DNA from: Squalus acanthias
Taxonomy: Eukaryota
DNA: 64,000 nt
Direction: 5' to 3'
NCBI GenBank assembly: GCA_030390025.1
Contig: CM059441.1
Span: 20,646,001-20,710,000 of the forward strand
The notes beneath the pieces are model-generated. The model was not told the origin of the DNA, did not search any database, and saw only the letters and a program-made list of their open reading frames with translations. Both the position numbers and the translations under genes were made by a program. Of the stretch, positions 24,384-60,757 are shown piece by piece; the first letter of the stretch is position 1; the number at the start of each line of letters is the position of its first letter.

Positions 24384-24563
24384 CTAGGATCTGAATGACA
24401 GTGTAGAGTATTCCACTGCTTCTGAAGAATTGATCTTGACGCCTCCATTTTGCTCTTTCAAATCCTTCAAATTGGCGTAAGTTGCAGAACTTCCCTCCGT
24501 CTGAGCGGGAGGTCGAACGGTCACAGTGGAATATGTAATCATATCTTCAGCTTCACTGTCAAA
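24384..24563 (-). CDS. Gene A exon 7, signalling tail FDSEAEDMITYSTVTVRPPAQTEGSSATYANLKDLKEQNGGVKINSSEAVEYSTLSFRS*
   Basis: attttag acceptor; ITIMs ITYSTV and VEYSTL; homologous to the gene B last exon. Confidence 0.88.
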   Translation of the reverse strand, partial: FDSEAEDMITYSTVTVRPPAQTEGSSATYANLKDLKEQNGGVKINSSEAVEYSTLSFRS

Positions 24564-24776
24564 CTAAAATAAATACATCATTCAGATGCTTGAAACTGTG
24601 TAAAGAGTCTCACATAGTATGTACATTGAGTCAGTTATCTTTCAATCAGGAATGGTTGCTCATGTCTGTTTCAGGCATATATTGGTTGACTCTTGACATT
24701 TTAGCATAGCCAGCATAATTCGGTTTGCACCTCCGTTTTCTCCCTCAAGTGGATTATACTGGACCTGCACTGGAAG

Positions 24777-25232
24777 TTCAGTGGGTAGTACCCTCGCCTC
24801 TGAGTCAGAAGGTTGTGGGTTCAAGTCCCACTCCAGAGACTTGAGCACAAAAATCTAGGCTGACACTCCAGTGCAGTACTGAGGGAGTGCTGCACTGTCG
24901 GAGGTGCCGTCTTTTGGATGAGACGTTAAACTGAGGCCCCGTTTGCTCTCTCAGGTGGACTTAAAAGATCCCATGGCACTATTTCGAAGAAGAGCAGGGG
25001 AGTTATCCCCGGTGTCCTGGGGCCAATATTTATCCCTCAATCAACGTAACAAAAACAGATTATCTGGTCATCATCACGTTGCTGTTTGTGGGAGCTTGCT
25101 GTGCGCATATTGGCTGCTGCGTTTCCCACATTACAACAGTGACAACACTCCAAAAAGTACTTCATTGGCTGTAAAGCGCTTCGGGAAGTCCAGTGGTCGT
25201 GAAAGGCGCTATAGAAATGCAAGTCTTTCTTT
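24777..25232 (+). mobile_element. DeuSINE copy
   Basis: Same sequence family. Confidence 0.88.
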
Positions 25233-25298
25233 CTCCAGTTCTCGAATATATTGACCACTTGCTGATTTTAAATGATTGGAAATTATTAAAAGGCTGTT

Positions 25299-25485
25299 GG
25301 CCTAGAAATTTGTCCCGGGCGGTGGCGCAGGACGGGCGGTATCGGATCGGCCGCCCGTTATACACAGCGCCCGATAGTTCAGTTGAATCGACTGCAATGG
25401 AACTGAGTATCAGGCACTGTGTATAACGGGCGCCCAATCCAATACCGCCCATCTTGTGCCAACTCCTGAGATGAATTTCTACCCC
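25299..25485. mobile_element. Palindromic MITE (~190 bp)
   Basis: TAGAAATT...AATTTCTA termini; internal arms cgcccgttatacacag / ctgtgtataacgggcg. Confidence 0.7.
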
Positions 25486-26084
25486 TGTAAGTATGAAGGT
25501 AGTCTTGCTTGGAAGCTATACTGCTTTCAGTTTGTTTGTGTAAAACATTACCCTGTTGGTGATTAATGTCCCCCCCCCCCCGGCCCTTCTAATTTAGAGA
25601 GAACGTTGGTTGCAACGATGTCTCTTGTAGGGAAGGAGCCAGAGTTGGGTTGGCTGAGCACTGCAACAAAGTGCCACCATCCTGTTGGGTGAGTGCACGT
25701 ATTCAGCATCTACCTCTCAGCAGATGTACACCCAACACAACTGCTGAAAATTGTATGAGCTCCTTTTGAGTACCACAATCACTCTACCCACTTGCTTTAT
25801 GAATAGTGTCAATTCTTGTGCATGTACAGTTAAAACTAGGTCAAGCAAAGAAGCCTGTATTAAACAGCAAGACCACCTGTGCAGATATATTTAGCTTGCA
25901 TCTCAATCATTGCTGTAACTATGTCGGTGGTGTAGATCTGTATCTCGTAACGTGATGCATGTATCAATATCAGCTTTTGTGCACTGTGTAATGTATCAAC
26001 AGATTTCCTACAATTATTGCAAAATTGTATGTTCGATGTGGAATGGCCATGGATTGTATCCCAACTGATAAAGTTGTAAGCACA

Positions 26085-26392
26085 GAAGCCAAGCTTCTGC
26101 GACTCGTGACCTCCACCACCTCGAAGGACAAGGGCAGCAGGCGCATGGGAACACCACCACCTCCAAGTTCCCCTCCCAGTTACACAGCATCCAACTTGGA
26201 AATATATCGCCGTTCCTTCATCGTCGCTCGGTCAAAATCCTGGAACTCCCTCCCTAACAGCACTGTGGGAGTACCCTCACCACACGGACTGCAGCGGTTC
26301 AAGAAAGCGGCTCACCACCACCTTCTCAAGGGCAATTAGGGATGGGCAATAAATGCTGGCCTTGCCAGTGACGCCCACATCCCAGGAACAAT
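26085..26392 (+). mobile_element. 3' fragment of a second CR1-group LINE family; also 28938-29252 (+), 37675-37733 (-) and 63790-63975 (-)
   Basis: SWNSLPNSTVG..FKKAAHHHLL peptide; tail gcaataaatgctggccttgccag. Confidence 0.8.
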
Positions 26393-26544
26393 TTTTTTTT
26401 AAATAGCATCCGTCAGATGTGGGTCCATTCCTCCATCACATTTAGATTTGCTTGTACTCTATTTTTCTCATCCACGGCCCTAACACCTGCTTTGTATCAT
26501 CTGCGAATTTGCCATCAGATCCCCCAATACCTTTATCACGGTAA

Positions 26545-26966
26545 CACGGTGGCATAGTGGTTAGCACTGGTGCCTCACAGCGCCAGGGACCCGGGTTCGA
26601 ATCTGACCTCGGGTGACTGTCTGTGTGGAGTTTGCACATTCTCCCCGTGTCTGCGTGGGTTTCCTCCGGGTGCTCCGGTTTCCTCCCACAGTCCAAAAAT
26701 GTGTGGGTTAGGTTGATTTGGCTATGATAAATTGACCCTTAGTGTTAGGGGGGGATTAAATATGTGGGGTTATGGGGATAGGATGGGATATGTTAGGGGG
26801 AATTAAATACATGGGGTTACAGGGGTAGGGTGGGATATGTGTACTGTGGGGATTAAAGCAGGGACAAGGTACTGGATTTGGATGATCAGCCATGATCGTA
26901 TTGAATGGTGGAGCAGGCTCGACGGGCCGAATGGCCTACTCCTGCTCCTAGATTCTATGTTTCTAT
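26545..26966 (+). mobile_element. V-SINE (HE1-like)
   Basis: tRNA head, V-domain gtggagtttgcacattctccccgtgtctgcgtgggtttcctccggg, CR1-type 3' tail. Confidence 0.88.
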
Positions 26967-27331
26967 GACCGATAAAGCCTTTGCTCTTTTCCATCTCTAA
27001 CACCAAGCCCTGCAGGACTCCACTAGTAACTCGCCTGACAATGAACCACTGTCTGCCAGTAATAGCCTTCTGCCTCCAAACATGCAACTAATTCTAAACC
27101 TAACCAAGATCTACCCACTAATCCCACGGGACTGTATATTATTAAGGAGCCTATTGTGTGGCACCTTGTCAAAATTGTTTTGAAACCCAAAGTATGCAAT
27201 GTCAACATCGTTGCAGTGATTACTTTAGGGCATTTGTTGTTTATTAAAGAAATTAAATGTCGTGTTAAGACATTGCAAAAGAAGAAAAGTGGACCAATAT
27301 GCCATTATCTTGTATTACACTCCATTCTTAC

Positions 27332-27372
27332 CTTATTGATCGTGATGGGGGGTTCTCGGTTTTCATTATTAC
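27332..27372 (-). CDS. Gene A exon 6, cytoplasmic GNNENREPPITINK
   Basis: ttttttacag/gtaag; phase 1-0; parallels gene B exon 5. Confidence 0.8.
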
Positions 27373-28643
27373 CTGTAAAAAAAAACATGTGACTCATTTA
27401 GAACAAGAATGCTCTCATTCATTTTCACCAGGGGTAGGTTTGTTCTAGGCTAGTCTGAAATGCAAATCTCTCGCTCTGTTTCGCACTCACATTCACCCAC
27501 AAACATCAAACCAACCACGTTCATCCAATCTACCACAGGAAACTGCAACCATTTATTGCTGCAACCACTTGCTACTTCCTCGCCACACGACAGTACAACC
27601 ACTTCCTCCAGAGTGTTGCACATGATTCAGTTGAGTATGGTACATTGCGATCGCTCTTGTGCTGCGTTTCAACTTGACTCATGGACTGATTTCTTCCTCT
27701 CTTCCTCCAAGTAGTTTCAATCTCCTGATGGCGATGAGTAACATACAAGTAATATTTCTCAAAACACTGTGGGATTTCTGTCCGAGACTGGAGAGCTTGC
27801 CAGTGCTTTCCGCTGCAATTTTCGATCGTTAAAAAACTAGAGGCTGAAATTATATTATAAACTATGAGAGGGAGGCAAAAGTTTGATCTGAATCTTTGTG
27901 GCCGGAATTTTAAGGAGGAAGGCGGATTGGGGGCAAGGGGGGGGGGGCTCCGAGGCGGTCCCGAAACCCAGAAGAATGGGTTTCCCGCAGGCCTTGACGA
28001 CTTTAACGGCAGGGCATGCGAGGCCTCTGTTTCCCGTCCGCAGCCAGCCAGATTGAGAGGCTGGCTGGCTGCGGGCGGGTAGGCCTGTGGCACTAGGCTG
28101 CAGAGAGGAGGGAGGGAGGGTTCGCGTGGGGGCCGGACTGTTAAATGGATCCGCGGGGGGGGGTGGGGGGGTGGAGGGTGCTAAATGGCCGACCCCTATT
28201 CTGAGATGGTGATCCCAGGTTCTAGACTTCCCAGCCAGGGGAAAAATCCTCCCAGCTTCAACCTTGTCAAGCCCTGTAAGAAATTATATATTTCACTGCG
28301 ATCACTTCTTATTCTTCTAAACTCTAGAAAATATAGGCCTAGTCTATTCAATCTCTCCTCATAGAACTACAATGGAGTTTCCCTTTCACCTCGTCCCCAC
28401 TGTAGTTCTCATTATCTTTTAATTCCTCTTTATTGTTTACATATCAGATAAGTACTGATAAAATTGACCACAATTGTTTTGGCTCGAGGGGCTGAATGGT
28501 TTACTCCTGTTCCTATGTTTCTTCAATGAGAAAGCAGTTCTTTTCAATTTTATGTGAATGTTTTATCATTGTACTATACACTAAACAATTGCTGTTTCTA
28601 CTTGCATATTTATTGCAGAATTAATGTTTTGTTGGCTACTTAC

Positions 28644-28762
28644 CCTCATTTCTGGCAGTTTTCGACCATTTCTTTTTCCATATAAATAGAACTATCAGCG
28701 ATAAAACTAATAGTCCCAGCACAACTGGGAGGATAATGTACCATGTTTGTTGGGCAGTATTA
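28644..28762 (-). CDS. Gene A exon 5, transmembrane NTAQQTWYIILPVVLGLLVLSLIVLFIWKKKWSKTARNE
   Basis: Uncharged hydrophobic run followed by KKK stop-transfer; ttttttag/gtaag; phase 2-1. Confidence 0.88.
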
Positions 28763-29575
28763 CTAAAAAATTGAAGTAGAATAGATGAAATTCAGGCTTT
28801 GTGCACACAATAGAATAAGGGAAAATATCTCTAACACTTAGTAGATTAAACTTAAAAGAGGAATCGGTCTTCACTGTAATTATCTGTGAGCTGAAAGATG
28901 ACCTATGTTCTGGTGAGACTATCTCTCACTGATGAGGATGCACTACAGCAACTCGCCAAGGCTTCTTCGACAGCACCTCCCAAACCCGCGACCTCTACCA
29001 CCTAGAAGGACAAGGGCAGCAGGCGCATGGGAACACCACCACCTCCAAGTTCCCCCTCCAAGTCAAACACTATCCTGACTTGGAAAAATATCGCCGATCC
29101 TTCATCGTCGCTGGGTCAAAATCCTGGAACTCCCTCCACCACATGGACTGCAGCGGTTCAAGAAGGTGGCTCACCACCACCTTCTCAAGGGCAATTAGGG
29201 ATGGGCAATAAATGCTGGCCTTGCCAGTGAGGCCCACAAATGAATGAATAAAACATTGGGCTGAGGTGTGAGGCTTTCCTTGATGGAGGGAAATCAGAAG
29301 AAAGCAGGAATGTCTAGCTGACTAATTATTGCCAGGGCCTGGGAAAATTTTGCTCCCTGACTTTTGCACTGATTTTAATAAATGGGAAGACAATTAATAG
29401 AAGAATTAGGGGGAAAAGTATGGCCCAAAAAGGTCATTGTTTGGACTGTGCTAGTTTTAAGGACATCCGCATTGCTCAGCATGACTTGTGAGGGCAGCAG
29501 AACCATCTATTAACTTTGACTTCAATCAGAATGAGTCAAGAATTTTTAATTTGAAGACAACTATTAAAATCTTAC

Positions 29576-29612
29576 CTTGCGATATTGACGGAAACTGTTG
29601 GACCTCTTGTTG
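29576..29612 (-). CDS. Gene A exon 4, short stalk ATRGPTVSVNIA(S)
   Basis: cctag/gtaag; phase 1 in, phase 2 out, joining D2 to the TM exon in frame. Confidence 0.75.
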
Positions 29613-30252
29613 CTAGGGGATTTGTTAAAGTAAACATAAGTTAACAAATAACTGGTAACCATCCACACACAACACAACTTTCATCTTCCTCAAACCTTAC
29701 AGTACTTAAGAAGGTGAATGTGGGGGGAGGGTGACGGGTGAGAAACATGTTTTATTCACTCTTCACTCTGGCTGGTTACGTTTTAATTTTCCCCTTGCCT
29801 TAAGCCAATTGGTCAAATTCTGGATGGATGAACAAAGATGGGTTGAATGGACTTCTTTGTCCTTAATTAACGTGCGATCTTGTGAAGAGGAAGCCTGAGG
29901 AAAGGGTGGATTCAGTTAGAGATAGAAACAACACACATATATTTTGAGGGGGGGGGGGAGGGGGCTCAAGAGGGGCTAACAGTGTTAGAAGGGCAACACT
30001 CTCTGAGGGGCAGCACAACTTTCCATTTATTTTTACGACGGTATTAGTGTTAGTTTCTATCGATATTTCTGTACTTTTATACCTTTTTCTATGTACTTCT
30101 GGCCTGATGCCACTGTTAAGAGGATGGGCGGACAGCTTGCTCTGAGTCCACCGACAATGATCACTTAATCAGCCACTAGGAGGTGCCTGAAACCACCCAG
30201 ATATGACTCTAGCCTCCAATATTTCCCTTCCCCCCTGTGCAGGGAAATAAAA

Positions 30253-30707
30253 GTAAGACTTGCATTTCTCCAGCGTCTTTCACGACCACTGGACATCTCA
30301 AAGCACTTTACAGCCAATGAAGTACTGGTTGCAGTGTAGTCACTGTTGTAATGTGGGAAACGCAGCAGCCAATTTGCGCACAGCAAGCTCCCACAAACAG
30401 CAATGTGATAATGGCCAGATAATCTGTTTTTGTTATGTTGGTTGAAGGATAAATATTTGGCCAGGACACCGGGGAGAACTCCCCCGCTCTTCTTCGAAAT
30501 AGTGCCATGGGATCTTTTACGTCCTCCTGAGAGAGCAGACGGGGCCTCGGTTTAATGTCTCATCGGAAAGACGGCACCTCTGACAGTGCAGCACTCCCTC
30601 AGCACTGCACTGGGAGTCTCAGCCCAGATTTCTTTGTGCTGAAGTCCCTGGAGTGGGACTTAGGACCCACAACTTTCCGATGCTACCCACTGAGCCACAG
30701 CTGACAC
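30253..30707 (-). mobile_element. DeuSINE copy
   Basis: Reverse complement of the family sequence. Confidence 0.88.
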
Positions 30708-31290
30708 CAGTCTTCTAAATGCTACTCAATGCCTCAATGCCCAGTGTGACCATCTCAAAATGAGATAGAACTTACAACAGAGCTGCTTTAATATATTTTC
30801 CTATTCTTTGCCACTGAAGGGGCTGCTCACCATTATCCATAAGCTGAGTGAGATACAGCACTGGATCAGCGACTGAAATAAATAGGAATAATCCTGGCTT
30901 CATTCACTGCCCATCCTAACGCTATATTAATTGGAAGTAATTCCAACACATGTTTTATGTCCAGATTAAGATGTCAATAATCTAAATTTACTGAATTCTA
31001 TGTATTACTCACCGCAAACAATAATTTAACTGAATTTTATGGTACAATATGTATGTGCAACAATAAGACGTAGAGAAGGTGTTTCCACTTGTGGGGGGAG
31101 ACCAAACTCAAGGGTCATAGATATAAGATAGTCACTATAATATCCAATAAGGACTCCAGGAAAAAAACTTCTTTACCCAGAAAGTTGTTACAATGTAAAA
31201 CTCACTACCACAAGGAGTAGACGAGGCAAATAGCATAGATGCATCGAAGGGGAAGCTAGATAAACACTGAGGGAGAAAGGAATAGAAAAA

Positions 31291-31702
31291 GAAAGAAAGA
31301 CTTGCATTTATATAGCGCCATTCACAACCACCGGACGTCTCAAAGCGCTTTACAGCCAATGAAACACTTTTGAAGTGGAGTCAGTGTTGTAATGTGGGAA
31401 ACGCGGCAGCCAATTTGCGCACAGTAAGCTCCCACAAACAGCAATGTGATAATGACCAGATAATCTGTTTTTGTTATGTTGGTTGAGGGATAAATATTGG
31501 CCAGGTCACCGGGGATAACTCCCCTGCTCTTCTTCGAAATAGTGCCATGGGATCTTTTACGTCCACCTGAGAGAGCAGACGGGGCCTCGGTTTAACGTCT
31601 CATCCGAAAGACGGCGCCTCCGACAGTGCAGCACTCCCTCAGCACTGCACTGGAGTGTCAGTCTAGCTTTATGTGCTCAAGTCCCTGGAGTGGGACTTGA
31701 AC
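31291..31702 (-). mobile_element. DeuSINE copy inserted into a CR1 3' fragment (31065-31810)
   Basis: CR1 tail resumes after the SINE. Confidence 0.85.
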
Positions 31703-31849
31703 TACTAGAAGGATATGCAGGTAGGGTTAGATGAAGTAGGGAGGAGGCTCGTGTGGAGCATAAACACCGGCAGGGACTAATCGTATCTGTGCTGTAAATT
31801 CTATGTAACACTGACTGAATTATAACAATAATTTTATGTTAATTCTTAC

Positions 31850-32176
31850 CTTCAGAAATCATCAGGAATTTAACCTGTGTAATCTCTATTTCAACTATTT
31901 TTGCAGCTCCACACCAGTAATCCCCTTCATCTCCCTTACTAACATTGCTCATGGTAACAGTAAAATTATGATAATCGTTAGTAATGATTGAAGCTGTTCT
32001 ATTGTACAGATTTTCCACAAATCTATCGGAGCTGGCTATAGTGGTGCACTTATTTACAGAGGTTACTTTACAGAAGAACTTCTCATAGTCTTTATACTGT
32101 TCCGTGTACAGACACTGTACAGTGGTGGCATTTCCCATTACACCATTGACCTGTGATGTGTTTGGGGTCCATGAAC
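31850..32176 (-). CDS. Gene A exon 3, IgV domain D2 (TTVQCLY...KFFCKVTSVNKC...DEGDYWCG)
   Basis: ORF 31839..32198; ccaacag/gtaag; 327 nt, phase 1-1. Confidence 0.92.
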
Positions 32177-32800
32177 CTGTTGGTAAATGAAAAAACAAAT
32201 GACGTTAAAAGTTCAAAATGCTGAAAAACTGAACATCTTTCGTTGCACAAAATATACAATTAATGAGCCAGACGTTGAAAATGTCAAAAATCTTTTCTGT
32301 TCTTAAAGTACGAACAGAATTATAGAGTCATATAGAACCCAGTGTAATCACTGAATGTCCCTGTGTTCACTCCCTGCCCATTCTAATACTATCTTTATTG
32401 ACGGTGTATAGTTTGCACCATGTTTAAAGAGGTATGTCGGTCTAAGTTTGGTAAACCCTTTCCGTATTGTGTAACTGCAGTGCAAACGCTAACACGTTAG
32501 GGTCAATTTTCTAAGTCGATGGAAGGTACCTAACTCCAGGCCTGTTATACCGGGCAGGTCAGGATAAAGTTCAGGATAGAGAACCGAGGATTGTGTTGGT
32601 TACCCGCTAAAGATTCACAAGCAATTTAAAAGTCTAATAGAGTTTCAGGTGGTATTGCTAGAACCATTGAGTAAAATATGGGCCACGTAAGGCTCTGGTA
32701 CGCTCACCCTTGGAGTATTGCGGGTGAAGCCGATGGAAAGGAAAATCAGGAGGCATGTAAAACGGGCTGCCGCTTCCCGATCACCCATTTTGTGCTATTG

Positions 32801-33270
32801 TGTCAGCTGTGGCTCAGTAGGGTAGCACCCTCGCCTCGGAGTCAGAGGTTGTGGGTTCAAGTCCCACTCCAGGGACTTGAGCACATAAAGCTGGGCTGAC
32901 ACTCCCAGTGCAGTGCTGAGGGAGTGCTGCACTACCGGAGGTGCCGTCTTTCAGATGAGACGTTAAACCGAGGCCTCGTCTGCTCTCTCAGGTGGACGTA
33001 AAAGATCCCATGGCATCATTTCGAAGAAGAGCAGGGGAGTTATCCCCGGTGTCCTGGCCAATATTTATCTCTCAACCAACATAAAAAAAACAGATTATCT
33101 GGGTCATTATCACATTGCTGTTTGCGGGAGCTTGCTGTGCGCAAATTTGCTGCCGCGTTTCCCACATTACAACAGTGACTGCACTTCAAAAGTACTTAAT
33201 TGGCTGTAAAGCGCTTTGAGACATCCGGTGGTCGTGAAAGGCGCTATATAAATGCAAGTCTTTCTTTTTT
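32801..33270 (+). mobile_element. DeuSINE copy, full length
   Basis: Same family. Confidence 0.88.
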
Positions 33271-34199
33271 CTTTATTGCACATGTCCGATTTCACCATCA
33301 TCCCCCCCCCGCCGCCCCCCCCCCCCCCCCCCCCCCCCATTCGGGCCTAAATTCATTCCTTCCCGAAGCCGGGTGCGATCTGTGCAACAGGCAGAACGGA
33401 GAGGCCCCAGGGCCTTCCTAAATTAGGGGGAGGGGGGAAGGAGGCGATCGAGGGTGGGCGGAGGGTGAGTGCTGGGTCGACAGCGGTTTGCAGTCTTGAT
33501 GTGGCGGCAGGAGGAACACTCCAGCAGGCCTCTTCCAAGGCCTCCAGCGGCCCCGCTGGTTCGTGCCACTGCAGAGCCTGAAAAAAGTAGTCGGAGCTTG
33601 CGGTAACGCATCCACCAACCTGTGCCACGTTCGCGCCCGGGTGGCCCTGGAGATGGAGCACGCGGTGTCCGCCGGCACGCTCGAGGCCTTCCGCGACCAG
33701 TGGGCACCGCAGGGACTGGAGTGCATCGTCATCCCGGCAATCGAATTTTAATTTCATTTGTTAAGTTTCATTTGATGTATTTTTGTTAAGTTACAGTTTT
33801 TGTTTATTGATCACACCAAAAGAGTAACCGCCAACTTGTTTTAACCAATTGTGCAAACGGATGCGGAAATGGGTCGCAGGAGGCTCGTTTCAATATTGAG
33901 GCCATTGTCGCCTTATAAAAGGCCCCAAGAATTGAGCAGTGGCCTGGACACATGTGGAGATTAGGGTTATTTTACTATGGAGACACAAAGGCTTGGATGC
34001 AATATGATTTAAGGTTTGTAAAATGTTGAGGGGGAGTGATACTATCTGTTTAGATAGGTTAATGGAAATGGATAGGGATGTTAGGGCAAGAGCTCATTAC
34101 TTGATCCCCAAGCATTCCTAGTGTGTCCTGCACTGCGCACAGGGAGCCCATGAGCTCATATTATGGCCCATACAGCCCTTGAAGAGCAGCAGTCCTGGT

Positions 34200-34475
34200 G
34201 TAGGCCATTTAAGACTGAGATGAGGAGGAGTTTCTTCACTCAGAGGGTTGTGAATCTTTGGAATTCTCTGCCCCAGGGGGCTGTGAATGCTGAGTCTTTG
34301 AGTATATTCAAGGCTGAGGTAGATAGATTTTTGGACTCTAGGGGAATCAAGGGATATGGGGATCGGGTGGGAAAGTGGAGTTGAGTTCGAAGATCAGCTA
34401 TGATCTTATTGAATGGCGGAGCAGGCTTGAGGGGCCGTATGGCCTACTCCTGCTCCTATTTCTAATGTTCTTATG
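34200..34475 (+). mobile_element. CR1-type LINE 3' fragment
   Basis: RPFKTEMRRSFFTQRVVNLWNSLP. Confidence 0.9.
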
Positions 34476-34528
34476 TCACTGCGCCCAGATCACTTTATCA
34501 GCCCTATTACCTTCCAAAAAATTCTTAC

Positions 34529-34852: not shown

Positions 34853-34971
34853 CTGTTGGCGAAACTTAACGTCAGAAAGTTTAAAGTATCGCCACAATCA
34901 ATATTACTCAGCACTTCTGGCAGAACACAAATAACATGGGGACAAAAAACAAATCCTGGATGGGACTGGAA

Positions 34972-41913: not shown

Positions 41914-41949
41914 ACTATCTTCGCCCAAGGAATAATGTATGGTGTATAA

Positions 41950-49345: not shown

Positions 49346-49400
49346 GTATTTTAAATACGGTTGCTCTTGATTTTTAATTTTTGTATTGGACTGAACTTAC

Positions 49401-50615: not shown

Positions 50616-51430
50616 GGGCTGGATTTTGTCTTGGGGTCGGGTTGGGGTCGTGTTATCCGCATTTCGTGTTCCCCCCCCGACTCCAGATTAATGTGGATGA
50701 ATGATGCAATTTTCACTTAATTGGGCAATTGAGTTCCAGCATGTGGGAACCCATGAACCAATTAGTGGTTTCAGTCTGAAAGTCGCCTCTGATGATGTCA
50801 TCATTGCTGCTGCATTGCAGGTCAGAGACTGACTGCCTGGCTGTTGGTGAGAGAGGACCTGGATGCAAAATAGAGAGATATAGNNNNNNNNNNNNNNNNN
50901 NNNNNNNNNNNNNNNNNNNNNNNNNNNNNNNNNNNNNNNNNNNNNNNNNNNNNNNNNNNNNNNNNNNNNNNNNNNNNNNNNNNNNNNNNNNNNNNNNNNN
51001 NNNNNNNNNNNNNNNNNNNNNNNNNNNNNNNNTCACAGCAAAGGCCATGCAGTCTCCATCAGAGGCGACTTTCAGATCTAATACTACTACCTGCATCACA
51101 TCTCCATTGTAATAGTGGACCTGCAGCTGATAGTCAGCTATCCACTTGTGCTCCCGCCAGGTTTCACTGGAGTGTTTCACATCAGGCGTACTTCATGTCG
51201 GAAAAGGGTTAAACTAGCTAAAACGTTTCAAAATGGCATTACAGAGCCAATTTAGGCTTGTTAAGGGCTTTAATGGCCTCTCCCGCCTCTTGGAGGTGAG
51301 TCGGGAACCCCGCGACTGATTTTGTCCAAATTGCGTGGAGTCGGGATGGGGTCGGGACCCCCGACCCCGCAAATTTAACCACCCCACACACCTCCAAACC
51401 CGACTCCATGGGTCATTCAAAATCCAGCCC
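50616..51430. mobile_element. DNA-transposon MITE nested in the ORF1 tail; encloses the assembly gap
   Basis: Perfect 13-bp TIRs GGGCTGGATTTTG / CAAAATCCAGCCC. Confidence 0.75.
50884..51032. other. Assembly gap (149 N)
   Basis: Run of N. Confidence 1.
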
Positions 51431-52002
51431 ATAATCTCCCTTAGAGAGTCTTCCTGCTATCACGGTTTCTCCAACAGTGCCACTCCCTTCGGCCTCATCT
51501 CCACCGCTGACCCTTGCTCCCCGTTTCTTCTCTCTCTGAGACAATGGCGCATCTGCACCTATTTTGCCCCCTTCTGGCGTCTCCCCGTTCCTGTCCTGCT
51601 GCCCCTTTAAGGCTCCTGCCTCTTGCACCCTCTCCTTGTCTTGCCCCCTCCTGCTCCCCGAGATGTCCAACTCCCCGTCTTTCTTTGGAATACTTACACT
51701 TGCCCCGCACCCGCTCCCACCTCCTCTCCCCCCGCGGACACCACATTCTTTAGGGAGAGCCGAGCCGTATTATGGCTCGACTTGTGCTGCCCGCTGCTGT
51801 CTTTGTCCTTTTTCACCGTACTTGGTGTGTTTTCCACCATCTGCATCCTGTTCTCTGATCTGCAATTTTCTGCCTATTCCTCCGCTCTTTTCTCCTTCCA
51901 TTCGCCAGCTGTGTCCTCTGCCTGCTCTGCCCCTCCAACCGCTCCACTCACACCTCCTGCTCCTTCTCATTCTCTCATCTCCTCCACCCATCTTCTCATC
52001 AC

Positions 52003-52707
52003 TCAAGGAGCTTTCTCTGCCTCACACTCACAGCGGGTGGGGCCTTTGTGACACGCCCCACAGCTCTCCGCCTTGCAGCTCTGAGCGATGTGTCCAGACT
52101 CGCCGCAGTTATAACAGTACAAGTCTGGACAGCTTCTTACAAGATGGTCGTGTCCAAGACAATAATAACAAACTTTCACCTGGTTATCATGCAGTACCCG
52201 GAAGTACTGCACTCCTTCCATTGTCTCGAATTTCATGCTATACAGCAATAACTTCACCCCCTCTGGGAACCGTACCTTTACATAACGGGTTCCATCTGCT
52301 ACCCGCGTTCCTGGATAGTATCTCCTCTTTATTGCCGAGCAAATTTTAATGTCCCACGACTCCAACTTTTTTATTAGCACATCATCCTCAATATAAACCG
52401 GCAGGTTTAAGAATGAGACCATCACCTCGTCAGAACATAGCAGAGATACCTCCAAGAACTTATCTCCAACCTTCAAACTGAGTAAAAGTCTTTCCACCTC
52501 CTCCCGGCCACTGGCCGTCACCTCGAACCCAACATTTGGCTTTGGTCGGCAGGCAAAGCAGCTTCCCTCGCCGCAGTCCTCATGTACCGCCTGGATAATA
52601 TCCCAAGCTCGTATCTCCTTATCCTCACACTGAACCACCACCATGTTTTTCTTTCCAAACCTCCTGGGGTCCCTTCCCCCAACATTTTCTTCCCTGATTA
52701 AATTCAT
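52003..52707 (-). CDS. Tx1-type ORF1p (ZCCHC3-like): RRM-like region plus CCHC knuckles CYYCLGHDHLVRSC and CYNCGESGHIAQSC
   Basis: ORF track 52003..52782; likely start MNLIREEN at 52707; motifs VSFLNLPVYIED and GTRVADGTRYVKVRFP. Confidence 0.85.
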   Translation of the reverse strand: MNLIREENVGGRDPRRFGKKNMVVVQCEDKEIRAWDIIQAVHEDCGEGSCFACRPKPNVGFEVTASGREEVERLLLSLKVGDKFLEVSLLCSDEVMVSFLNLPVYIEDDVLIKKLESWDIKICSAIKRRYYPGTRVADGTRYVKVRFPEGVKLLLYSMKFETMEGVQYFRVLHDNQVKVCYYCLGHDHLVRSCPDLYCYNCGESGHIAQSCKAESCGACHKGPTRCECEAEKAP

Positions 52708-54384
52708 CTTGGGAACATTGTCCTCTGAGGGGCTGCTGTTTAAGGACCAAAAAGGCCCTAAAACCTGAAAAAAAAACACCAACTTTTTACAAACTCACTC
52801 CAACTCCCTGCAGTAATCAAGCACCCAGCAGCACCTGCTCACTCCTAGCCCCTCCCATCTAGAGAGTGCTAACACTGAGCCACGGCTGACACTGTAGTAC
52901 TAAATGGGGTATGAAATCAGCAAACACTCTTTGTAGCAATATTTAAGGAAACACGATGGCCTTGGAATTACACTGCGCAAAGATTAGTGTGTGAACATTT
53001 AATGTGTCCCTACTAAATTCCTTTTTCTGCTATATTAACGGAGGCTTATTAAAAGCAAATGAACGCTTCTGTTAAAATAGGAATTTAATATAAATGGGTT
53101 AAATGTTTGTTAATCTGCTGACATCCTGGATCCAAGTAATTAGACCTTGTGATGGTCACAGTCGAAGTATGCAGCTTGGCTCAGTTGTTAGCACCTTTGC
53201 CTCTGAGTTAGAAGATTGTGAATTCAAGCCTCTCTGCAGTGCTCAGAGGTGCTTCCTTTTGGAGAAAAGGCCCTGTCTGCCTACTTATGTGGATGTCAAA
53301 GATCTCATAGCAGAACAGGGAGCAGGCAGTTCTTCTCATGTGCTGATCGACATTCATCCCTTCAGAGGATGGGAATTAATATGGATTCAGAAGGAGCAGA
53401 TCTCGCATGGCCAACCTCCTTGATGTCTTTGAGGAAACAACATCCCAGATGGACTGCGGTAAGCCCCTGAGCTGATGTTTAGACGTTTTCTGTCTTGAGG
53501 GATATGCTGGCATTGTCAAACTAGGTTTTTATTTTAGACTTTTTGAATAAAAGAGGGTTTTGCTACCTCAGGACATGTTGCAGAATGCTGTTAGTCTTGG
53601 CAGCATAGGGTGACACCTCTATTCCTGTCCAGAATGGAGATGATTGGGTAATTCTCCCATCAATGATGCTTGGAGCCCACGCTGCTGTAAGTGACTGGGA
53701 TTGATTTTACGCACATGAGTTCCGCTTGTTGTAGTTGGTAGAGACTCTTTTTTAAATAGACTGGGTAAATAGCCTCTGTTTGCTTTGCTGTGTGCTTTGT
53801 TTGCTGTAAGTCAGTGGTATTAAAGGGACAGAGGTAACTTGCGTATGAAATTGGCTAAGGGATAGGAGGCAGAGAGTAGTGGGGAGTCGGGGTAAATTGG
53901 ACAGCTCTTTCAAAGAGCCGGCACAGACACGATGGGCCGAATGGCCTCCTCCTGCCAGAATGGAGATGATATGGTGGTGTTCTCCCATCGATCACGCCCG
54001 GAGACGGCACTGCTGTAAGTGACTGGGATTGATGTTACGCCTACCAACACTTGTTTTCCCATTTCCTGAACTATTCCACACCTACTGCCAAGGCCCCAGA
54101 GGAAGATTGAATGCTGAAGATGTCAGTGTAGCAAAGCCCCACTTCTGGTGTGCTCTGCAATAATTGCTCGCGGACTGCACCAGGAGAGGAAGATCAGCCC
54201 CTGGAGATCCTACAGAAATTAGGTGTGAGACATCTCAACATGGTACCGTGCAAAAGAACGGAGAAAAATGTAATGCTACACGTCTTACTTAGTCAGTCTC
54301 CTTAAAAAGAAAAGGTGCAGGTTCTCAGTAATCCTTGAAATCTGCTCTATCCAATGCAAAGTACCAAAGCCAAAAGGATTTTTT

Positions 54385-55203
54385 TTTAATATTCGTTCAT
54401 GGGATGTGGGCGTCGTTGGCAAGGCCAGCATTTATTGCCCATACCTAATTGCCCATGAGAAGGTGGTGGTGAGCCGCCTTCTTGAACTGCTGCTGTCCGT
54501 GTGGTGAGGGTACTCCCACAGTGCTGTTAGGGAGGGAGTTCCAGGATTTTGACCCAGCGACGATGAAGGAACGGTGATATATTTCCAAGTCAGGATGGTG
54601 TGTGACTTGGAGGGGAACTTGGAGGTGATGGTGTTCCCATGCACCTGCTGCCCTTGTCCATCTATGGTGGTAGAGGTCACGGGTTTGGGAGGCGCTGTCG
54701 AAGAAGCCTTGGCGAGTTGCTGCAGTGCATCTTGTAGATGGTACACACTGCAGCCACGGTGCGCTGGTGGTGGAGGGAGTGAATGTTTAAGGTGGTGGAT
54801 GGGATGCCAATCAAGCGGGCTGCTTTGTCTTGGATGGTGTCGAGCTTCTTGAGTGTTGTTGGAGCTGCACTCATCCAGGCAAGTGGAGAGTATTCCATCA
54901 CACTCCTGACTTGTGCCTTGTAGATGGTGGAAAAGCTTTGGGGAGTCAGGAGGTGAGACACTCGCCGCAGAATACCTAGCCTCTGACATGCTCTTGTTGC
55001 CACAGTATTTATGTGGCTGGTCCAGTTAAGTTTCTGGTCAAAGGTGACCCCCAGGATGTTGATGGTGGGGGATTTGGCGATGGTAATGCCGCTGAATGTC
55101 AAAGGGAGATGGTTAGACGCTCGCTTTTTGGAGATAATCATTGTCTGGCACTTGTGTGGCGCGAATGTTACCTGCCACTTATCAGCCCAAGCCTGAATGT
55201 CGT
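54385..55203 (-). mobile_element. CR1-group LINE RT C-terminal fragment (second family)
   Basis: ORF 54677..55303 WADKWQVTFAPHKCQ...LGVTFDQKLNW...YKAQVRSVMEY. Confidence 0.88.
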
Positions 55204-55393
55204 CTATTGAATAGAATCTATGAATAGGATCTATTATAAGTTTCACCAAAGATTGCCAAGGATAGTAAAGCTCCATATTGTATTTGTCCCTCCGGTTCAG
55301 CATTTTAAAAAAGCATCTGTGAGCTATTCACAGAACACGTTCATACTTATGGTAAAGATGCACAATATTGATTTCGACCTATGAGAGACTAAC

Positions 55394-55520
55394 CTGGCTG
55401 TTCCAGTGCTGTGAAAGGAAGTGGTGAGAGCTGTCGTAACAGAAGCCTCAGTAGTTCCTGTTGTCCTGGTGGTTGGCCCCATTGTTGTCCTCGGTGCTGG
55501 AGATAAAATAGAGGAACTTG
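55394..55520 (-). CDS. Gene B exon 3, Ser/Thr-rich mucin-like stalk ASSSILSPAPRTTMGPTTRTTGTTEASVTTALTTSFHSTGTA(S)
   Basis: ORF 55324..55554; ttcag/gttag; phase 1-2. Confidence 0.85.
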
Positions 55521-56181
55521 CTGAACACTTCATCACTGAAAGCAGTTGTTGCATACAGTTTACGCCTCTTAATTGAGGTACTTAAATAATCTGATCAATC
55601 AATATTTTTAGCACTAAATTCCCACTTTGTATTGTTTGTGTTGCTTAATTCAATTGATTAGATCATTCCATTATTTTTTAAGGGCAAAAATTGACTGAAT
55701 TAGCAGGGCTAGACTGTGGCACAAAAAGATGAAATCAGAGGCAACTATAACAAAATACATGACGAGTGAATTTGACCTTTTGGTGGCTACTGGGTGCATA
55801 AAAGGTGCTGATTTTCCTCCTCTTGTGTGAGTTGGCGGAGGTTCTGATCTCAGAGCGATCGATGGAAGTTGGGGAAGTGACACACCAACAGCAGAACAGC
55901 TGGCAGCTAAAAACTTTCAGGAGGGACATTTTTTACAAGTCCGTTTCCCTCACCCACCTCCCTCTCCCTTCCTGATGGAGTGGCAAGATATTGCTCTGGA
56001 AATCCAGTGTCCCCATGGGCTGGGCACCCCAGTAAATGGGTGCTCACCCCTTTTATGCAAATGAACCTGCCCCCGGGACTTGGCACAGAGTCACTGTCAG
56101 AGCAGACGGGTGGGAATTTCTGGGCTCAAATGCTTAAATTTGGCCAGAATGAACTAAATAGAAATACAATTGTGTTCTTAC

Positions 56182-56505
56182 CTTCAGAAACTTCCAATTT
56201 GATTAAAAACTTTTCATTTTGTTGAAATAGTGACCGTTTTATCACACACCAGTACCATCCTTCATCATGTTTCATTAGGGGATCCACGGTGACTGAAAAT
56301 ATCCCTTGTGTTTTTTTATCAGTCAGTGACACTCTGACTTGTTCTGGTTGATCAGTAGAAACCACAACAGAACAGAAATGGTAAGTAAAACCTTTACACC
56401 ACTGTTTAACATTGTCCTTGTAACGCAGATTATACCGACAGTCCACAGTGACCGATCCTCCCAATTCTGCGTAAACCTTCGCGGGTCCAGATAATTGACA
56501 CGAAC
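56182..56505 (-). CDS. Gene B exon 2, IgV domain (GGSVTVDCRY...KQWCKGFTYHFC...DEGWYWC)
   Basis: ORF 56126..56515; classic CD300/pIgR motifs; ccaacag/gtaag; 324 nt. Confidence 0.93.
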
Positions 56506-56929
56506 CTGTTGGCATATTAATGATGAAAGGTTATTGATTATTGTATCAGAATCAACATAAACAGCACTTAACCAAATAAACACTGTTTGCAATTATAGAT
56601 TAAATTCCATTTTTAATATCGCATTCCTTGTGCTGATTCTCATATCACCAACATTGTTACTCAAATTACTGCATACACGCAGTTTTTGGGCCTGATTTTC
56701 CCAATATATGATTTCCTGTTGTGAGCAGGTTGCGAGGCCAGATTCCCTGCTGGTTGTGCATTCTGAGAAAATTATCCCTGTCATCATTGTAGATCGATAT
56801 TCTTTATTTACACTGATCATCGCTATTAAGTGAAACTAAAAAGCTTGCTAAAAAACCTAATTCTTTCATTCTTTCTAACAGGTTCTCTCAGTTGGCCCAT
56901 TTCTAAACCCAGTTATTTTATTTAACTTT

Positions 56930-58540
56930 CTACAGGAACAGAGAAACATTAGGAACAGGTGTAGGCCATTTACCCGCCTTAGCTCCATATCCCTCGATAC
57001 CCTTACTTAACAAAAATCTATCGATCTCGGTCTTGAAAGCTCCAATTGTACCAGCAACCACAGCCTTTTGGGGGAGAGTGTTAAAAATTTCTATTGTCTG
57101 TTGTGTGAAAAAGTGCCTCCTTATTTTGCTCCTGATAGGCCTAGCTTTAATTTTAAGATTCTGTCCCCTTGTTCTTGATTCCTCCACCAGAGGAGATAGT
57201 TTCTTCGTATCTACCCTATCAAATCCTTTTAACATTTTAAACACCTCGATCAGATAAGAACATAAGAACATAAGAAATAGGAGCAGGAGTAGGCCAATCA
57301 GCCCCTCGAGCCTGCTCCGCCATTCAATAAGATCATGGCTGATCTGATCCTAACCGCCAATCTACTATCTATCACAGAACCATCTCCTGCATCTAACAGA
57401 ATTGCACACACGAAATAGGAGCAGAATCAGGCTACACAGTCCCTGGGCCCGCTCCACTACCCACAGGGCCATGACCGATCCGAACCTAGACTCATGTCCA
57501 AATTCCTGCCCGCTCCCCGTAACCCTTAATGCCCTTTACTTCTAGGAAACCTATCAATCTCCAACGCTCTAGGGAATACAAGCCAAGTTTACGCAACCTG
57601 TCCTTGTAATTTAACCCTCTGGTATTGTAAGATAGAACGTACCTGTAGGATTTAGTAAACATTATTAAGATTTTAAACCATTATAAAATATCTATAATGT
57701 ATGACAATGTGTGTTAAAAACCTGAAGCCTGTATAAAATGGCAAACGGCTGAGAAGCATAGCATGATGGTAAGTAATGCCAACTTGATGTAATTCTGTAG
57801 AATGGTCTGTTAAGTAAACAAGGAGTTAGTGGGGAACAAGAAATTCAGCAACATTGCAAAAGAAGATAGGGGGATGGAGACAGTCACCACTCCCTGTCTT
57901 CTCAAAAATGCAGAATCGGCTAAACAATGAGCTGATTAAAAAGCAAAAAGACATCTGTGAGAATTTAGTGTGAAGGTTGTTCTCAGATAAGGATAGCTTG
58001 CTTACTAACTGCCACGTAGGCAAAAGGGAGAAAAAGGGGTATAAAAATACAGATATTGAACTCTGAAAGCAGCGCGACACCAGAGGACGAGAAGCTTCAG
58101 TCAACAGAACACAGCAAGTGTTAAAGAGACCGCGCCACAGTCACCCGGAAGGAACGCCGGGGTTTCGAGGAACAGACTGCGACTATCATCTTGTTAAGTA
58201 TTACTTCTTTGTACTGGATGTAAGATACTTGATAAACCTGTTTTACTTATACACAATATACCTGTACCCGGAGTGGTTTGTTATGGTCATGGACAAATTA
58301 ATCTAAAGAGCATTTGACAAGATAACAGTATCATTCTGGTGAATCTACGCTGCAACCCCTCCAACGCTAATATATCCTTCCTGAGGTGCGGGGCCCTAAA
58401 CTGAATGTGGTCTGACCAAAGCTCTGTAATACTGAAGTATAACTTCTTCCCCTTTGTAATACCCTTGAGATAAAGACCAACATTCAATTAGCCTTTTTGA
58501 TTGCTTTTTGTACCTGTCTTCTGGCTTTTAATGATCTGCT
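56930..58540 (-). mobile_element. Stacked CR1 3' fragments interrupted by a solo LTR
   Basis: ORFs 56930..57271 and 58287..58487 carry CR1 peptides. Confidence 0.8.
57626..58327 (+). mobile_element. Solo LTR (702 bp; ERV or Gypsy type)
   Basis: TGTAA...TAACA ends; GTAT TSD at 57622-57625 and 58328-58331; TATAAAA at 58040-58046; host CR1 continuous across it. Confidence 0.8.
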
Positions 58541-58700
58541 TGGAACTATAGGCAATATTTTGGCATCTTGTCGTTGGTAACAATATGCAGTTCGTGTGCA
58601 TATCGCAAATCGCTGACCTCAAGTAATCTTGCGAAGTTGCTTATTCAAATATTGCTCATGCATTGCCTGCATGCATTGGGCACTAATCAGGGGACATAAT

Positions 58701-59533
58701 GGGGGAAAGATTGGCTATCGCCCATTTTGGGACGCTAATATCGGCCGGGCGCAAAGTTTAGCGCCCGCGCTAATTATCGTCTCTGACTGCAATATTCACC
58801 TCTATCACCCCTGGAGGTGATTTGAGCACTAAATCAGGTGCTCCACACCTCTCTTAAGGCGCTAACGTTGAGGAGCGAGGCGCTACCTCAGAACGCTACC
58901 GAAGCTCAGGTGATGTCAGTTACCATGGAAGCCAGACAGACTGGCGCCGTCCAGTTCTTAAAGGGGAGAGACCATCTTGCTGGCCAGCCACATCCTGCTC
59001 ATTGCAGCCTTGAATCTCGGCCTGGAGAGATCTCTAAAGCAATTGTGTTGGAAGCACTAATGGATCGGCCCAGGGAAAGAGCTCGGCACTTAGGAACCTC
59101 AAAAGTGGTGCTGAGGGTCAAAACTCCTTAGGACAGCGTTAAATCTCTCCAGACGTCTCTCTCCCTCTCAATCTGCGTGTACCAAAAATTTTGCCTACAA
59201 GAAACAGCAGGAAGTGCCCGCCTTTAAATAGCACTCCCCCAGCCCCTTCCTGATTTGAAAACATTCCCCTCTACCTGTCGTTCCTAGTGGCAGGCGCTAA
59301 GGCAGGGGGCACAACTCAATTTCCGGTCCGGGGCGCTACCGGGGCGTTGCACGCTCGACTGACAGCATGATCTGCGGGCGCAGGAGATCGTGGCGGTAGT
59401 GTTTAGCGCCGCCGCAAAACGACTGGTCAATTTCGCGAGCGGCGCTAAAATCGCCACGCTAAGTTCCTAGCGCCCCATTAGCGCCCCCCGGAGGCGCTAA
59501 CGGGGAGGCGCTAACCAACCGAATTTTTCCCCC
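58701..59533. mobile_element. Harbinger-like non-autonomous element
   Basis: GGGGGAAAGATT...AATTTTTCCCCC; AAT TSD; internal MDRPRERARH resembles the start of a Harbinger Myb-like ORF. Confidence 0.75.
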
Positions 59534-60717
59534 AATGTCTGTCTGGGCAAAATATCCGACACAGCAGCAGGTTTAAAGGGACGCTGTACCAATATTTAAT
59601 TTACCCAATAACTGAGCTGCCAATCTACCCAACCCCTTCTCCGAGGACTTCACAGGAACCAGAAAGCAGGCAGAGCCAGGCTGCGAATGCCCACCTTACA
59701 GGCACACCTGAGGTAGACACGACAGGAAAATTGGTTCTCTTTTGGTGCAGGATGGCATTGAGAAATAAACGCAGTGCGAGCTCAGGAAGATTAAGGTACT
59801 TCCTTTGTGGTACTGTTGGTATGTCAACACACAAGGAGCGTTGCAAGATATCATGGATGATTAAGTTAAGGACGTGATCTGTATACATTGGTGTCGCCAC
59901 AGAGCATTCGGGAAATCTTCATAGAGGGTTTGTAAGGCTAGTCATGAAATACCACAGGAGGAGGATTATTACCTCTGAGCTGGTACTGAGAAATATGATC
60001 ATATAAATCCAAGTAAACTCACAAGTCACAATACAAGTGATTTAAAAACAATTCAATTATTTGAACTTCAGAGGCTGGGTAAAGCACAATGTGAAGAAAC
60101 ACATTCAATGTCTGTTCTGGTGCAATGTATTTTTTGGTAGCAGCCGATCTTTTAAAAGAGGTGAGATATTGATCATACTGCCTTAAATATAGTTGAACTG
60201 AAATAATGGATTGTGTTTTTTTTTTCAAAAGTACTTCTGTTTGACTGACTAATATTTCACACAGTTTGCATTTCAAGAGACAAATGTGTTCTAGGTTCAA
60301 CATTTTTCTATGCAGTCTGTGGAGGGAACTCCTGTGAGGCGCCTTGGGTCGATTTACTAAGTTAAAGGTGCTGTAAAGGGGCAATTTGTTGTTGTTGTAA
60401 ACCTAAAAGGACTGCAGTTAGTCTCTTGGCATTGATGAGGAGCTGGAGTTTCAGGTAGGACAGAGCTGCAACAGGGCAGAAAGAATCAGGTGCAGCGGGA
60501 AAGCACAGAGAGAAGCAAAGGCAGATTGAAGATGCTGGAGAAGCACATGGAGAAGCACAGGAATATCGCAACAACTTGCAAGACCGAGAGTGGTTTATCA
60601 TTAGCTCACCACAGCAAAACTGCTGGTTACTCGGTCAGTAGAAGTTTATGGCCTTCATCAGCTCTGATTACGAAAGTGCTTTTTAATAACACTGAATGAA
60701 GAAAAAAAAAGACTTAC

Positions 60718-60757
60718 TTGATACAGAAGTAAGAATCAAAAGAGCAATGAATTCCAT
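60718..60757 (-). CDS. CD300/pIgR-like gene B exon 1, signal peptide MEFIALLILTSVS
   Basis: aaaATGG context; same 40-nt length and phase as gene A exon 1; GTAAG donor. Confidence 0.85.

Follow-up and report, generated by a model that had tools for sequence, protein, structure and literature searches.

The closest described relatives of the genes analysed here are the MDIRs (short for modular domain immune-type receptors), which Cannon et al. reportedly described in the clearnose skate in 2006. Domains of the CD300/TREM type, as well as those of fish MDIRs, are said to bind lipids according to later work by Cannon et al. from 2012. A "double-disulfide Ig superfamily" cluster, with domains related to pIgR, CD300, TREM, and NKp44 and located on a pIgR-syntenic chromosome, was reportedly found in sharks and chimaeras by Flowers et al. 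in 2021, and we take it to be very likely the cluster described below. In mammals, CD300LF consists of a single V domain, a stalk, and an ITIM tail with a Grb2-type tyrosine. To our knowledge, pIgR and FcαμR carry no ITIM tails. Sharks have IgM, IgW, IgNAR, and J chain. MDIRs form a skate multigene family with activating and inhibitory members that resemble CD300, TREM, and pIgR (PMC3031540), and a 2014 screen did not find homologues of pIgR or Fc receptors in sharks (PMC4016189).

The window, a 64,000-nt stretch of the Squalus acanthias genome, was found to contain two intact genes on the minus strand, A (60757..45211) and B (38230..24384). In the models predicted from the window DNA, every intron is GT-AG and each gene keeps a single open frame (Table 1). 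With two ITIMs in each gene as well, the first-pass annotation was right to call them two complete genes in tandem. It also assigned them matching exon and phase plans. The 40-nt leader exons, the intron phases, and a hydrophobic transmembrane (TM) segment free of charged residues indeed match, but gene B has two V domains on separate exons and gene A has one.

Table 1. Exons of genes A and B, in window positions.
Gene	Exon	Position	Strand	Feature
A	1	60718..60757	-	40 nt, signal peptide; N-termini of P0003, P0004, P0006 agree
A	2	56182..56505	-	V-set, C-x7-C, CD300lf-like fold; no Asp at CD300lf Asp98 position
A	3	55394..55496	-	Thr-rich stalk, 103 nt; acceptor 55520 instead adds 8 aa
A	4	49401..49516	-	TM segment, uncharged
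A	5	47998..48050	-	Short cytoplasmic exon
A	6	45211..45378	-	ITIM VTYSTV, YxN YSNV, ITIM VEYSAV, stop
B	1	38191..38230	-	40 nt, signal peptide; agrees with P0011, P0013
B	2	34529..34852	-	V domain 1, C-x7-C
B	3	31850..32176	-	V domain 2, C-x7-C; C-C' loop near-invariant among orthologues
B	4	29576..29612	-	Short stalk
B	5	28644..28762	-	TM segment, uncharged
B	6	27332..27372	-	Short cytoplasmic exon
B	7	24384..24563	-	ITIM ITYSTV, YxN YANL, ITIM VEYSTL, stop

How long is the product of gene A? The 355 aa first given for gene B were confirmed, but the 275 aa given for gene A depend on acceptor 55520, which lies 24 nt upstream of acceptor 55496; the latter yields 267 aa. The shorter product is probably the main one, because the pyrimidine tract is better at 55496 than at 55520, the 8-residue insert is missing at this acceptor in all four aligned orthologues, and the lengths of contigs from sequencing run X1 are compatible with an exon 3 of 103 nt. 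The 275-aa form, although reproducible, was thus rejected as the main form; it may remain as a minor isoform. Run X1 is probable RNA by guess; none of the runs that contain the sequence is recorded as RNA, and six were guessed to be so. A contig of this run matches exon 2 of gene A with 0 mismatches and diverges from the window sequence at the donor, and the match to exon 6 stops at acceptor 45378. On the junction check proposed at the outset, the ends and lengths of these exon-restricted, probable-RNA contigs fit splicing of gene A as modelled, and its splicing is inferred from them. In the guessed-RNA runs X2-X4 the V exon is uncovered, and these runs count neither for nor against splicing.

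All three V exons, referred to as A-V, B-V1, and B-V2, exceed the Pfam V-set cut-off and encode the cysteines of the B-F disulfide. They also encode C-x7-C, in which two further cysteines span the C-C' loop and are predicted from sequence to form a bond. The first-pass annotation described this extra disulfide as a property of the family, which holds for the three exons here but less well elsewhere, as 6 of the 10 V domains of gene-A type from other sharks and rays lack the C' cysteine. The domains are, as it stated, highly diverged from each other (29-31% pairwise identity). The best sequence match of A-V is CD300lf (66 bits), and the ten best fold matches of its AlphaFold model (pLDDT 93) are all CD300lf/IREM-1, with TM scores of 0.85-0.92. 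A fold search with B-V1 returned CD300c, pIgR, TREM2, and FcμR without separating them. Membership of A and B in the CD300/pIgR/TREM-type (double-disulfide IgV) superfamily is supported by sequence and fold, in line with the family first proposed.

The tails of both genes are ordered ITIM, YxN, ITIM, and this order is kept in other sharks and rays. Two ITIMs, defined as [SIVL]xYxx[ILV], are present in 9/9 A-type and 8/9 B-type orthologue tails, as is the YxN motif (9/9 and 8/9), and the chance of at least two ITIMs in shuffled tails is 0.0044 for A and 0.0045 for B. It is established that an ITIM docks SHP and that YxN docks Grb2. We consider it probable, judging from sequence, that A and B are intact and conserved cluster members of the MDIR (CD300/pIgR) type and that they serve as inhibitory leukocyte receptors. 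Upon ligand binding, the receptors would cluster and a Src-family kinase would phosphorylate their two ITIMs. The paired SH2 domains of SHP-1/SHP-2 would then dock on the ITIMs, so that activating signals are damped; a Grb2-type adaptor would likely bind the YxN between the two. The activating signals may come in part from sister genes in the cluster, whose TM Arg is predicted to pair with an adaptor of the FcRγ/CD3ζ type. Two zeta/FcRγ-type TM exons were found in the genome; a search for the DAP10 family had no match anywhere, and its controls were likewise unmatched.

Genes A and B have relatives throughout the cartilaginous fish. In a quick tree of 88 of 122 domains (34 near-redundant rows removed), which leaves the deep forks open, A-V, B-V1, and B-V2 each form a shark/ray group with support of 99. 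V identity to orthologues is 62-73% for A and 44-74% for B. On these comparisons, A and B are old genes present in single copy, and orthologues of both occur throughout sharks and rays. Each of their V domains was found in one copy both in genome searches and in a six-frame reading of 1.02 Mb. B-type genes are expanded in catsharks and Mustelus. In other species, Arg-type TM segments also occur behind A- or B-type ectodomains (P0008, P0010, P0156, and P0225), and relatives of genes B and C are found in the little skate (P0144, P0158). Orthologues bear the automatic names CMRF35-like (P0004-P0006, P0242) or polymeric immunoglobulin receptor-like (P0011-P0013, P0015, P0019), and labels in an Atlas search are exclusively of these two kinds. 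The named orthologues match A and B over their whole length with equal domain numbers and equal tail motifs, and the names are best-hit labels only. Some database models (P0001, P0003, P0085) fuse adjacent genes.

The cluster to which A and B belong, and of which they form one end, comprises 22 related V exons over ~880 kb and reaches past the window, as the first-pass annotation suspected. The upstream part holds 14 similar V exons with common back ends, 8 of them Arg-bearing (activating-type) and 5 inhibitory. Besides A and B, the cluster has in total 8+1 Arg-bearing TM exons and 5+1 ITIM tails, and its genes carry 1-3 V domains. In other words, the cluster is paired, with activating and inhibitory back ends both present, and not inhibitory alone. 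The upstream expanded subfamily has a dN/dS of 1.8. By this measure the cluster shows diversifying selection in the upstream subfamily, and A and B are conserved single-copy genes. Of the diversified inhibitory cluster first proposed, the likely inhibitory nature of A and B survives, whereas the cluster as a whole is paired and its diversification lies upstream. The most likely ligand of A and B is a surface molecule of self that is conserved, given that the two genes are single-copy, kept across sharks and rays, and devoid of the canonical lipid-site Asp discussed below; fast-evolving recognition, probably directed at lipids or microbes, would fall to the expanded upstream subfamily. The moderate V identity of 44-74% and the B-type expansions of catsharks and Mustelus speak against a conserved ligand of this kind.

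The cluster is flanked by genes for AMP deaminase, GST, AdoHcyase (AHCYL), and a G-alpha subunit (Gαi), that is, by an AMPD/GST/AHCYL-Gαi block. Human CD300 genes are flanked by NHERF1 and TTYH2; the corresponding markers lie off the cluster contig, with EBP50_C on contigs C18 and C1505 and Tweety on C18, C24, and C2143. Identity with the TREM locus was considered but not adopted, as NFYA (23.34 Mb) and one MDFI match (31.8 Mb) are on the contig but not adjacent. The tetrapod pIgR locus is located between the IL10 family and SARG/C1orf116. IL10-family genes and SARG share a chromosome with the cluster, and the interval between them (C17, 14.23-15.02 Mb, of which 220 kb were read) contains a different V gene at 14.863 Mb. 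This gene has a pIgR-like position between ATP5PB and the IL10 family, 5.8 Mb from the cluster.

Could A and B instead be sensors of phosphatidylserine, PE, or ceramide like mammalian CD300a/CD300lf, damping responses at contact with dying cells? This possibility, raised as a candidacy in the first-pass annotation, is a real but rather unlikely one. The floor of the CD300lf pocket is formed by the C-C' cysteines together with a Trp that precedes the F-strand Cys (PMC6166816). A-V retains these cysteines and this Trp, and CD300lf is its nearest relative in both sequence and fold. However, the calcium-holding Asp98 (F-strand Cys+8) is missing from A-V, B-V1, and B-V2; by this motif, the candidacy is unsupported in all three domains. 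An activating-type V domain aligns to CD300lf Asp98 without gaps, and an Asp at +8/+9 from the F-strand Cys is present in 15 of the 19 other cluster domains. Furthermore, the pocket Tyr34 is replaced by Gln in A-V, Ser in B-V1, and Phe in B-V2, and the pocket disulfide is the one lost in most A-type domains elsewhere. An Asn near the site in A could still hold calcium, as could a conserved acidic residue of B-V2 located one position before the Asp98 site.

A less probable reading concerns gene B, which would be a shark receptor for polymeric Ig (IgM/IgW/IgNAR) descended from the branch that also produced tetrapod pIgR, FcαμR, and FcμR and mediating feedback inhibition by antibody through its ITIMs. 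In mixture-model trees drawn without mammalian CD300, TREM, or TMIGD3, B-V1 and B-V2 group with D1-D3 of bird, turtle, and frog pIgR/FcαμR, with support of 95/93 in a 40-row tree and 99/98 in a 44-row tree; A falls outside this grouping. The IgV phylogeny thus places B on the pIgR/FcαμR side, but AU tests did not reject keeping B on the CD300-like side (p=0.176 for 40 rows, p=0.082 for 44 rows). Within the pIgR/FcαμR clade, moreover, B sits with ITIM receptors of coelacanth and axolotl (96/85) and not with pIgR. A C'-C''-D signature is common to B-V1 and B-V2 of this genome and pIgR/FcαμR domains, and the other 19 cluster domains lack it. It is nevertheless found in just 3/45 B-type domains of other sharks and is a weak pIgR marker, being carried by 17/99 tetrapod first domains. 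The CDR1 motif of D1 occurs in 92/99 tetrapod first domains, 0/73 shark-protein domains, and none of the V domains of the genome. By motif, then, the Ig-receptor candidacy first proposed for both genes is unsupported, leaving a minority reading for gene B alone. The motif contacts J chain and Fc in pIgR, and the CDR1 of FcμR is four residues shorter than that of pIgR D1, IgM still being bound (PMC7614769). Its absence is therefore not fatal to an Ig-binding function. Against such a function stand also the undivided fold matches of B-V1 and the occupation of the IL10-SARG position by a gene other than B. A bird pIgR D1 query of the genome had its best matches among cluster domains, at 29-44%.

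Gene B may share an ancient branch with the antibody-transport receptors of land vertebrates. A fuller version, which we regard as a long shot, would make B the extant cartilaginous-fish member of a lineage sister to tetrapod pIgR/FcαμR. This lineage would have persisted as an ITIM receptor not only in sharks and rays but also in coelacanth and axolotl, B would bind shark polymeric Ig by a short CDR1 in the manner of FcμR, and the lone V gene between ATP5PB and the IL10 family, which shares the chromosome of B, would mark the site of the ancestral pIgR/TMIGD3 locus. If true, no Fc receptor of a shark would precede gene B, and its action would be inhibitory. Finally, that A and B are non-functional, decaying relics of a birth-and-death cluster is hardly credible: in the upstream subfamily, frameshifts do affect 2 V exons and 1 tail, and some TM exons are orphans, but the frames of A and B are open, their splice sites canonical, and their orthologues conserved in sharks and rays, and contigs of probable-RNA run X1 fit a spliced gene A.

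Returning to A and B as conserved, likely inhibitory receptors, they are mostly ordinary members of a kind of cluster already reported as skate MDIR and annotated in other shark genomes. The value of the analysis lies in a ranking of candidates rather than in a new system. Lipid or microbial ligands are best sought with the Asp-bearing expanded subfamily, Ig with gene B and the 14.863-Mb gene, and a conserved ligand of self with gene A. The cluster also shows that the CD300/pIgR domain family is present in sharks despite the negative screen of 2014. CD300lf/CLM-1/IREM-1 is the best match of A-V in sequence and fold, and both systems have paired activating relatives. The locus differs from the mammalian CD300 cluster in that A and B lack Asp98, the activating partners have a TM Arg, gene B has two V domains, and the human flanking genes are off the contig. 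With pIgR, FcαμR, and FcμR, A and B share the superfamily, and the B domains lie on the pIgR side of the tree; as differences, A and B lack the D1 CDR1 motif, bear ITIM tails, which pIgR and FcαμR are not known to have, and are 5.8 Mb from the IL10-SARG interval. The automatically named proteins of coelacanth (XP_014340091.1/XP_014340088.1) and axolotl (XP_069489127.1) have two V domains and an ITIM-YxN-ITIM tail as in B. Their first domain groups with B, and the coelacanth also has an Arg-TM partner, but the second domain of the coelacanth protein is placed apart from B-V2. A full-text literature search of limited coverage found MDIR in PMC3031540 alone and nothing under "ddIgSF", and no protein named MDIR was among the database matches to A/B relatives. 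The likeness to MDIRs is one of description: a multigene family of cartilaginous fish with CD300/TREM/pIgR-like V domains, varying V number, and both signalling forms, to which the present locus adds, for one shark, the arrangement of the genes in the genome, their flanks, and the pattern of selection.

On its minus strand, the window has three V-set exons by six-frame reading, which exon assembly placed in two genes. Gene A consists of six exons encoding 267 aa, and gene B of seven exons encoding 355 aa. Every intron in both genes is GT-AG, and intron phases match between them except for the additional V exon of B. The first-pass annotation had described a tandem pair of ITIM-bearing receptors of 355 and 275 aa; its end coordinates for both genes and its length for gene B were reproduced by the assembly. 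The 275 aa for gene A was produced by an acceptor 24 nt upstream in the stalk exon, and four aligned orthologues lack this 8-residue insert in the stalk. Indirect evidence that gene A is spliced comes from contig ends and lengths in X1, a sequencing run guessed to be RNA. Among the matches listed, a 318-nt contig follows the V exon of gene A without mismatch to its donor and continues for 30 more letters, and the match of a 765-nt contig to exon 6 starts at the acceptor. The 272 letters preceding the latter match equal exactly exons 3, 4, and 5 (103+116+53). X1 did not cover the unique intron bin adjoining the V exon of gene A. Apart from a zinc-knuckle frame, the intron sequence is rich in SINE/LINE fragments.

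The transmembrane (TM) segments of both genes are uncharged, and both tails carry an ITIM, a YxN, and an ITIM in that order. Shuffled tails yielded two ITIMs in 0.44-0.45% of cases. Of the database orthologues, all 9 A-type proteins and 8 of the 9 B-type proteins have at least two ITIMs, and the YxN gives the same counts (9/9 and 8/9). The same module appears in proteins of coelacanth, paddlefish, and axolotl. Pairwise identity is 29-31% among the three V domains and 44% between the tails. ITIM and YxN motif rules for docking of SHP-1/2 and Grb2 are established, and by these rules the tails of A and B would be predicted to dock both.

A genome search with the V domain of gene A (A-V) gave 24 matches out of 35 candidates: 22 at 20.677-21.553 Mb of C17, the contig holding the window, one at C17 14.863 Mb, and one on contig C3, labelled TIM-like from its cysteine pattern. 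Six-frame reading of 1.02 Mb recovered the same 22 cluster exons, ordered as genes B, A, C, D, and E followed by 14 V exons.

Features of the receptor cluster and its surroundings (L-numbers, stretches of the genome read)
Feature	Location	Strand	Content
AdoHcyase (AHCYL1-like) 3' exons	window 438-9610	+	tail to tail with gene B
Gene B	window 38230-24384	-	2 V, ITIM
Gene A	window 60757-45211	-	1 V, ITIM
Zinc-knuckle frame	window 52003-52794	-	263 aa, gene A intron 3; presumably a non-LTR retroelement ORF1 remnant
Gene C	C17 20.712-20.743 Mb (L001-L004)		3 V, tyrosine tail without ITIM
Gene D			1 V, ITIM tail
Gene E			1 V, Arg in TM, stop directly after
Expanded subfamily	C17 20.87-21.57 Mb (L017-L086)	both	14 V exons, 8 Arg-TM exons, 5 uncharged-TM/ITIM back ends
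SARG	C17 14.23 Mb
ATP5PB	C17 14.84 Mb
Lone CD300/pIgR-type V gene	C17 14,863,410-14,875,100		L098: V exon 410-739, TM exon 7375-7513; tail candidate in L126
IL10-family exons	C17 14.89, 14.92 (weak), 15.015 Mb
NFYA	C17 23.34 Mb
TIM/HAVCR-like V exon	C3:155,647,046-155,647,474 (L100)		outgroup
Weak V matches (28 bits) to pIgR D1 and B-V1 queries	C3311:462063-462317, 628405-628659; C24:48,886,554-48,886,829

The 14 V exons share 66-97% identity; two of them and one tail are frameshifted, and two activating TM exons have no nearby V exon. Pooled pairwise dN/dS for the 12 intact V exons was 1.77 (codon bootstrap 1.10-3.0), the pairs being non-independent and gene conversion unmodelled. It was 1.99 in loops and 1.43 (0.77-4.0) in framework, and the FG loop was the most variable part (dN 0.335 versus dS 0.033). 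The V loops of the subfamily diverge while its TM exons are near-identical. This subfamily is a recent expansion of the paired type. With both Arg-TM and ITIM back ends, the cluster as a whole is of the paired kind, and the window covers its conserved inhibitory end. Gene C is kept in other sharks and skate. Its three near-identical V exons have an FG loop like that of CD300lf and a BC loop that is longer.

A-V and the two V domains of gene B (B-V1 and B-V2) each group with other sharks and rays (support 99), at identities of 62-73%, 44-62%, and 50-74%, respectively. Skate and chimaera also have B-type proteins. An Arg TM accompanies A- or B-type ectodomains in some other species (database proteins P0008, P0010, and P0156); genome searches and the 1.02-Mb reading found no such version here. 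The C' cysteine of the extra disulfide, present in A-V (window 56182-56505), is missing from 6 of 10 A-type domains of other sharks and rays. Several shark 'pIgR-like' models (P0001, P0003, P0047, P0049-P0051, P0085) are two neighboring cluster genes fused, with 580-770 aa and two leaders and TMs. Such models may pass for multi-domain pIgR.

Exons of AMP deaminase, GST, and AdoHcyase lie below the cluster and a G-alpha gene above it, flanks that we take to correspond to the human 1p13.3 block AMPD2-GSTM-AHCYL1-GNAI3. Family searches of the genome found NHERF and Tweety, the neighbors of CD300 in human, on contigs other than that of the cluster. Since these neighbors lie elsewhere and a separate V gene occupies the SARG-IL10 position, neither A nor B is a positional orthologue of CD300 or pIgR. 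The separate gene lies between ATP5PB and IL10-family exons, and the 220 kb read around it holds no other V exon. ATP5PB marks the usual place of TMIGD3, and the IL10 family that of FCMR/PIGR/FCAMR. The V domain of the lone gene keeps the C-C' cysteine pair, lacks both the B- and F-strand cysteines, and scores +24 bits toward tetrapod pIgR/FcαμR versus fish-type domains. The gene has a Lys in its TM and a candidate tail with an ITIM-like motif. It is a candidate for the ancestral TMIGD3/pIgR-family locus.

Does gene B descend from the pIgR lineage? In mixture-model trees of only ~113 columns that left out mammalian CD300, TREM, and TMIGD3, B-V1, B-V2, and the 14.863-Mb domain joined tetrapod pIgR/FcαμR D1-D3 (95/93 with 40 rows, 99/98 with 44 rows). 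The three-domain bird and turtle proteins take the name FcαμR-like from their D1 motif and a single database label. Chimaera, skate, coelacanth, and axolotl domains shared a separate branch with B (96/85). The alternatives withstood AU tests (p=0.176 and 0.082). Profile scoring against models of the tetrapod pIgR type and the bony-fish type put the B domains in the middle (average +2.0 and -0.5 bits) and A at -43 bits; a fold search with B-V1 did not discriminate between family members. Gene B domains may share descent with tetrapod pIgR/FcαμR, a lead rather than a result.

The first-pass annotation had also proposed lipid or Ig ligands. The A-V model (pLDDT 93) retrieved CD300lf/IREM-1 at fold-search ranks 1-10 (TM 0.85-0.92), with pIgR starting at rank 11. 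CD300lf binds calcium and phosphocholine through Asp98 and a pocket whose floor consists of Cys36-Cys44, Tyr34, Trp89, and Met100 (PMC6166816). Aligned over residues 60-107 of CD300lf, an activating-type V shows no length change, and its Asp falls on 98. Of the 19 other cluster domains, 15 have Asp at Cys+8/+9, versus none of the three in A and B; near this site, Asn stands two positions later in A, and in B-V2 the position just before is acidic and conserved. Of 99 tetrapod first domains, 92 carry the D1 CDR1 motif of pIgR, which is absent from every shark domain examined. FcμR nevertheless binds IgM through a shorter CDR1 (PMC7614769). That gene B is an Ig receptor is a long shot.

Databases already list orthologues of A and B under automatically assigned names. 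Flowers et al. 2021 reportedly placed the superfamily in a single shark cluster that shares synteny with the pIgR locus. A 2014 screen of sharks had reported no homologues of pIgR (PMC4016189). Skate MDIRs are outlined as an activating and inhibitory multigene family resembling CD300, TREM, and pIgR (PMC3031540). A and B are additional members of an already known receptor type; the Ig-receptor reading of gene B would be the more valuable one.
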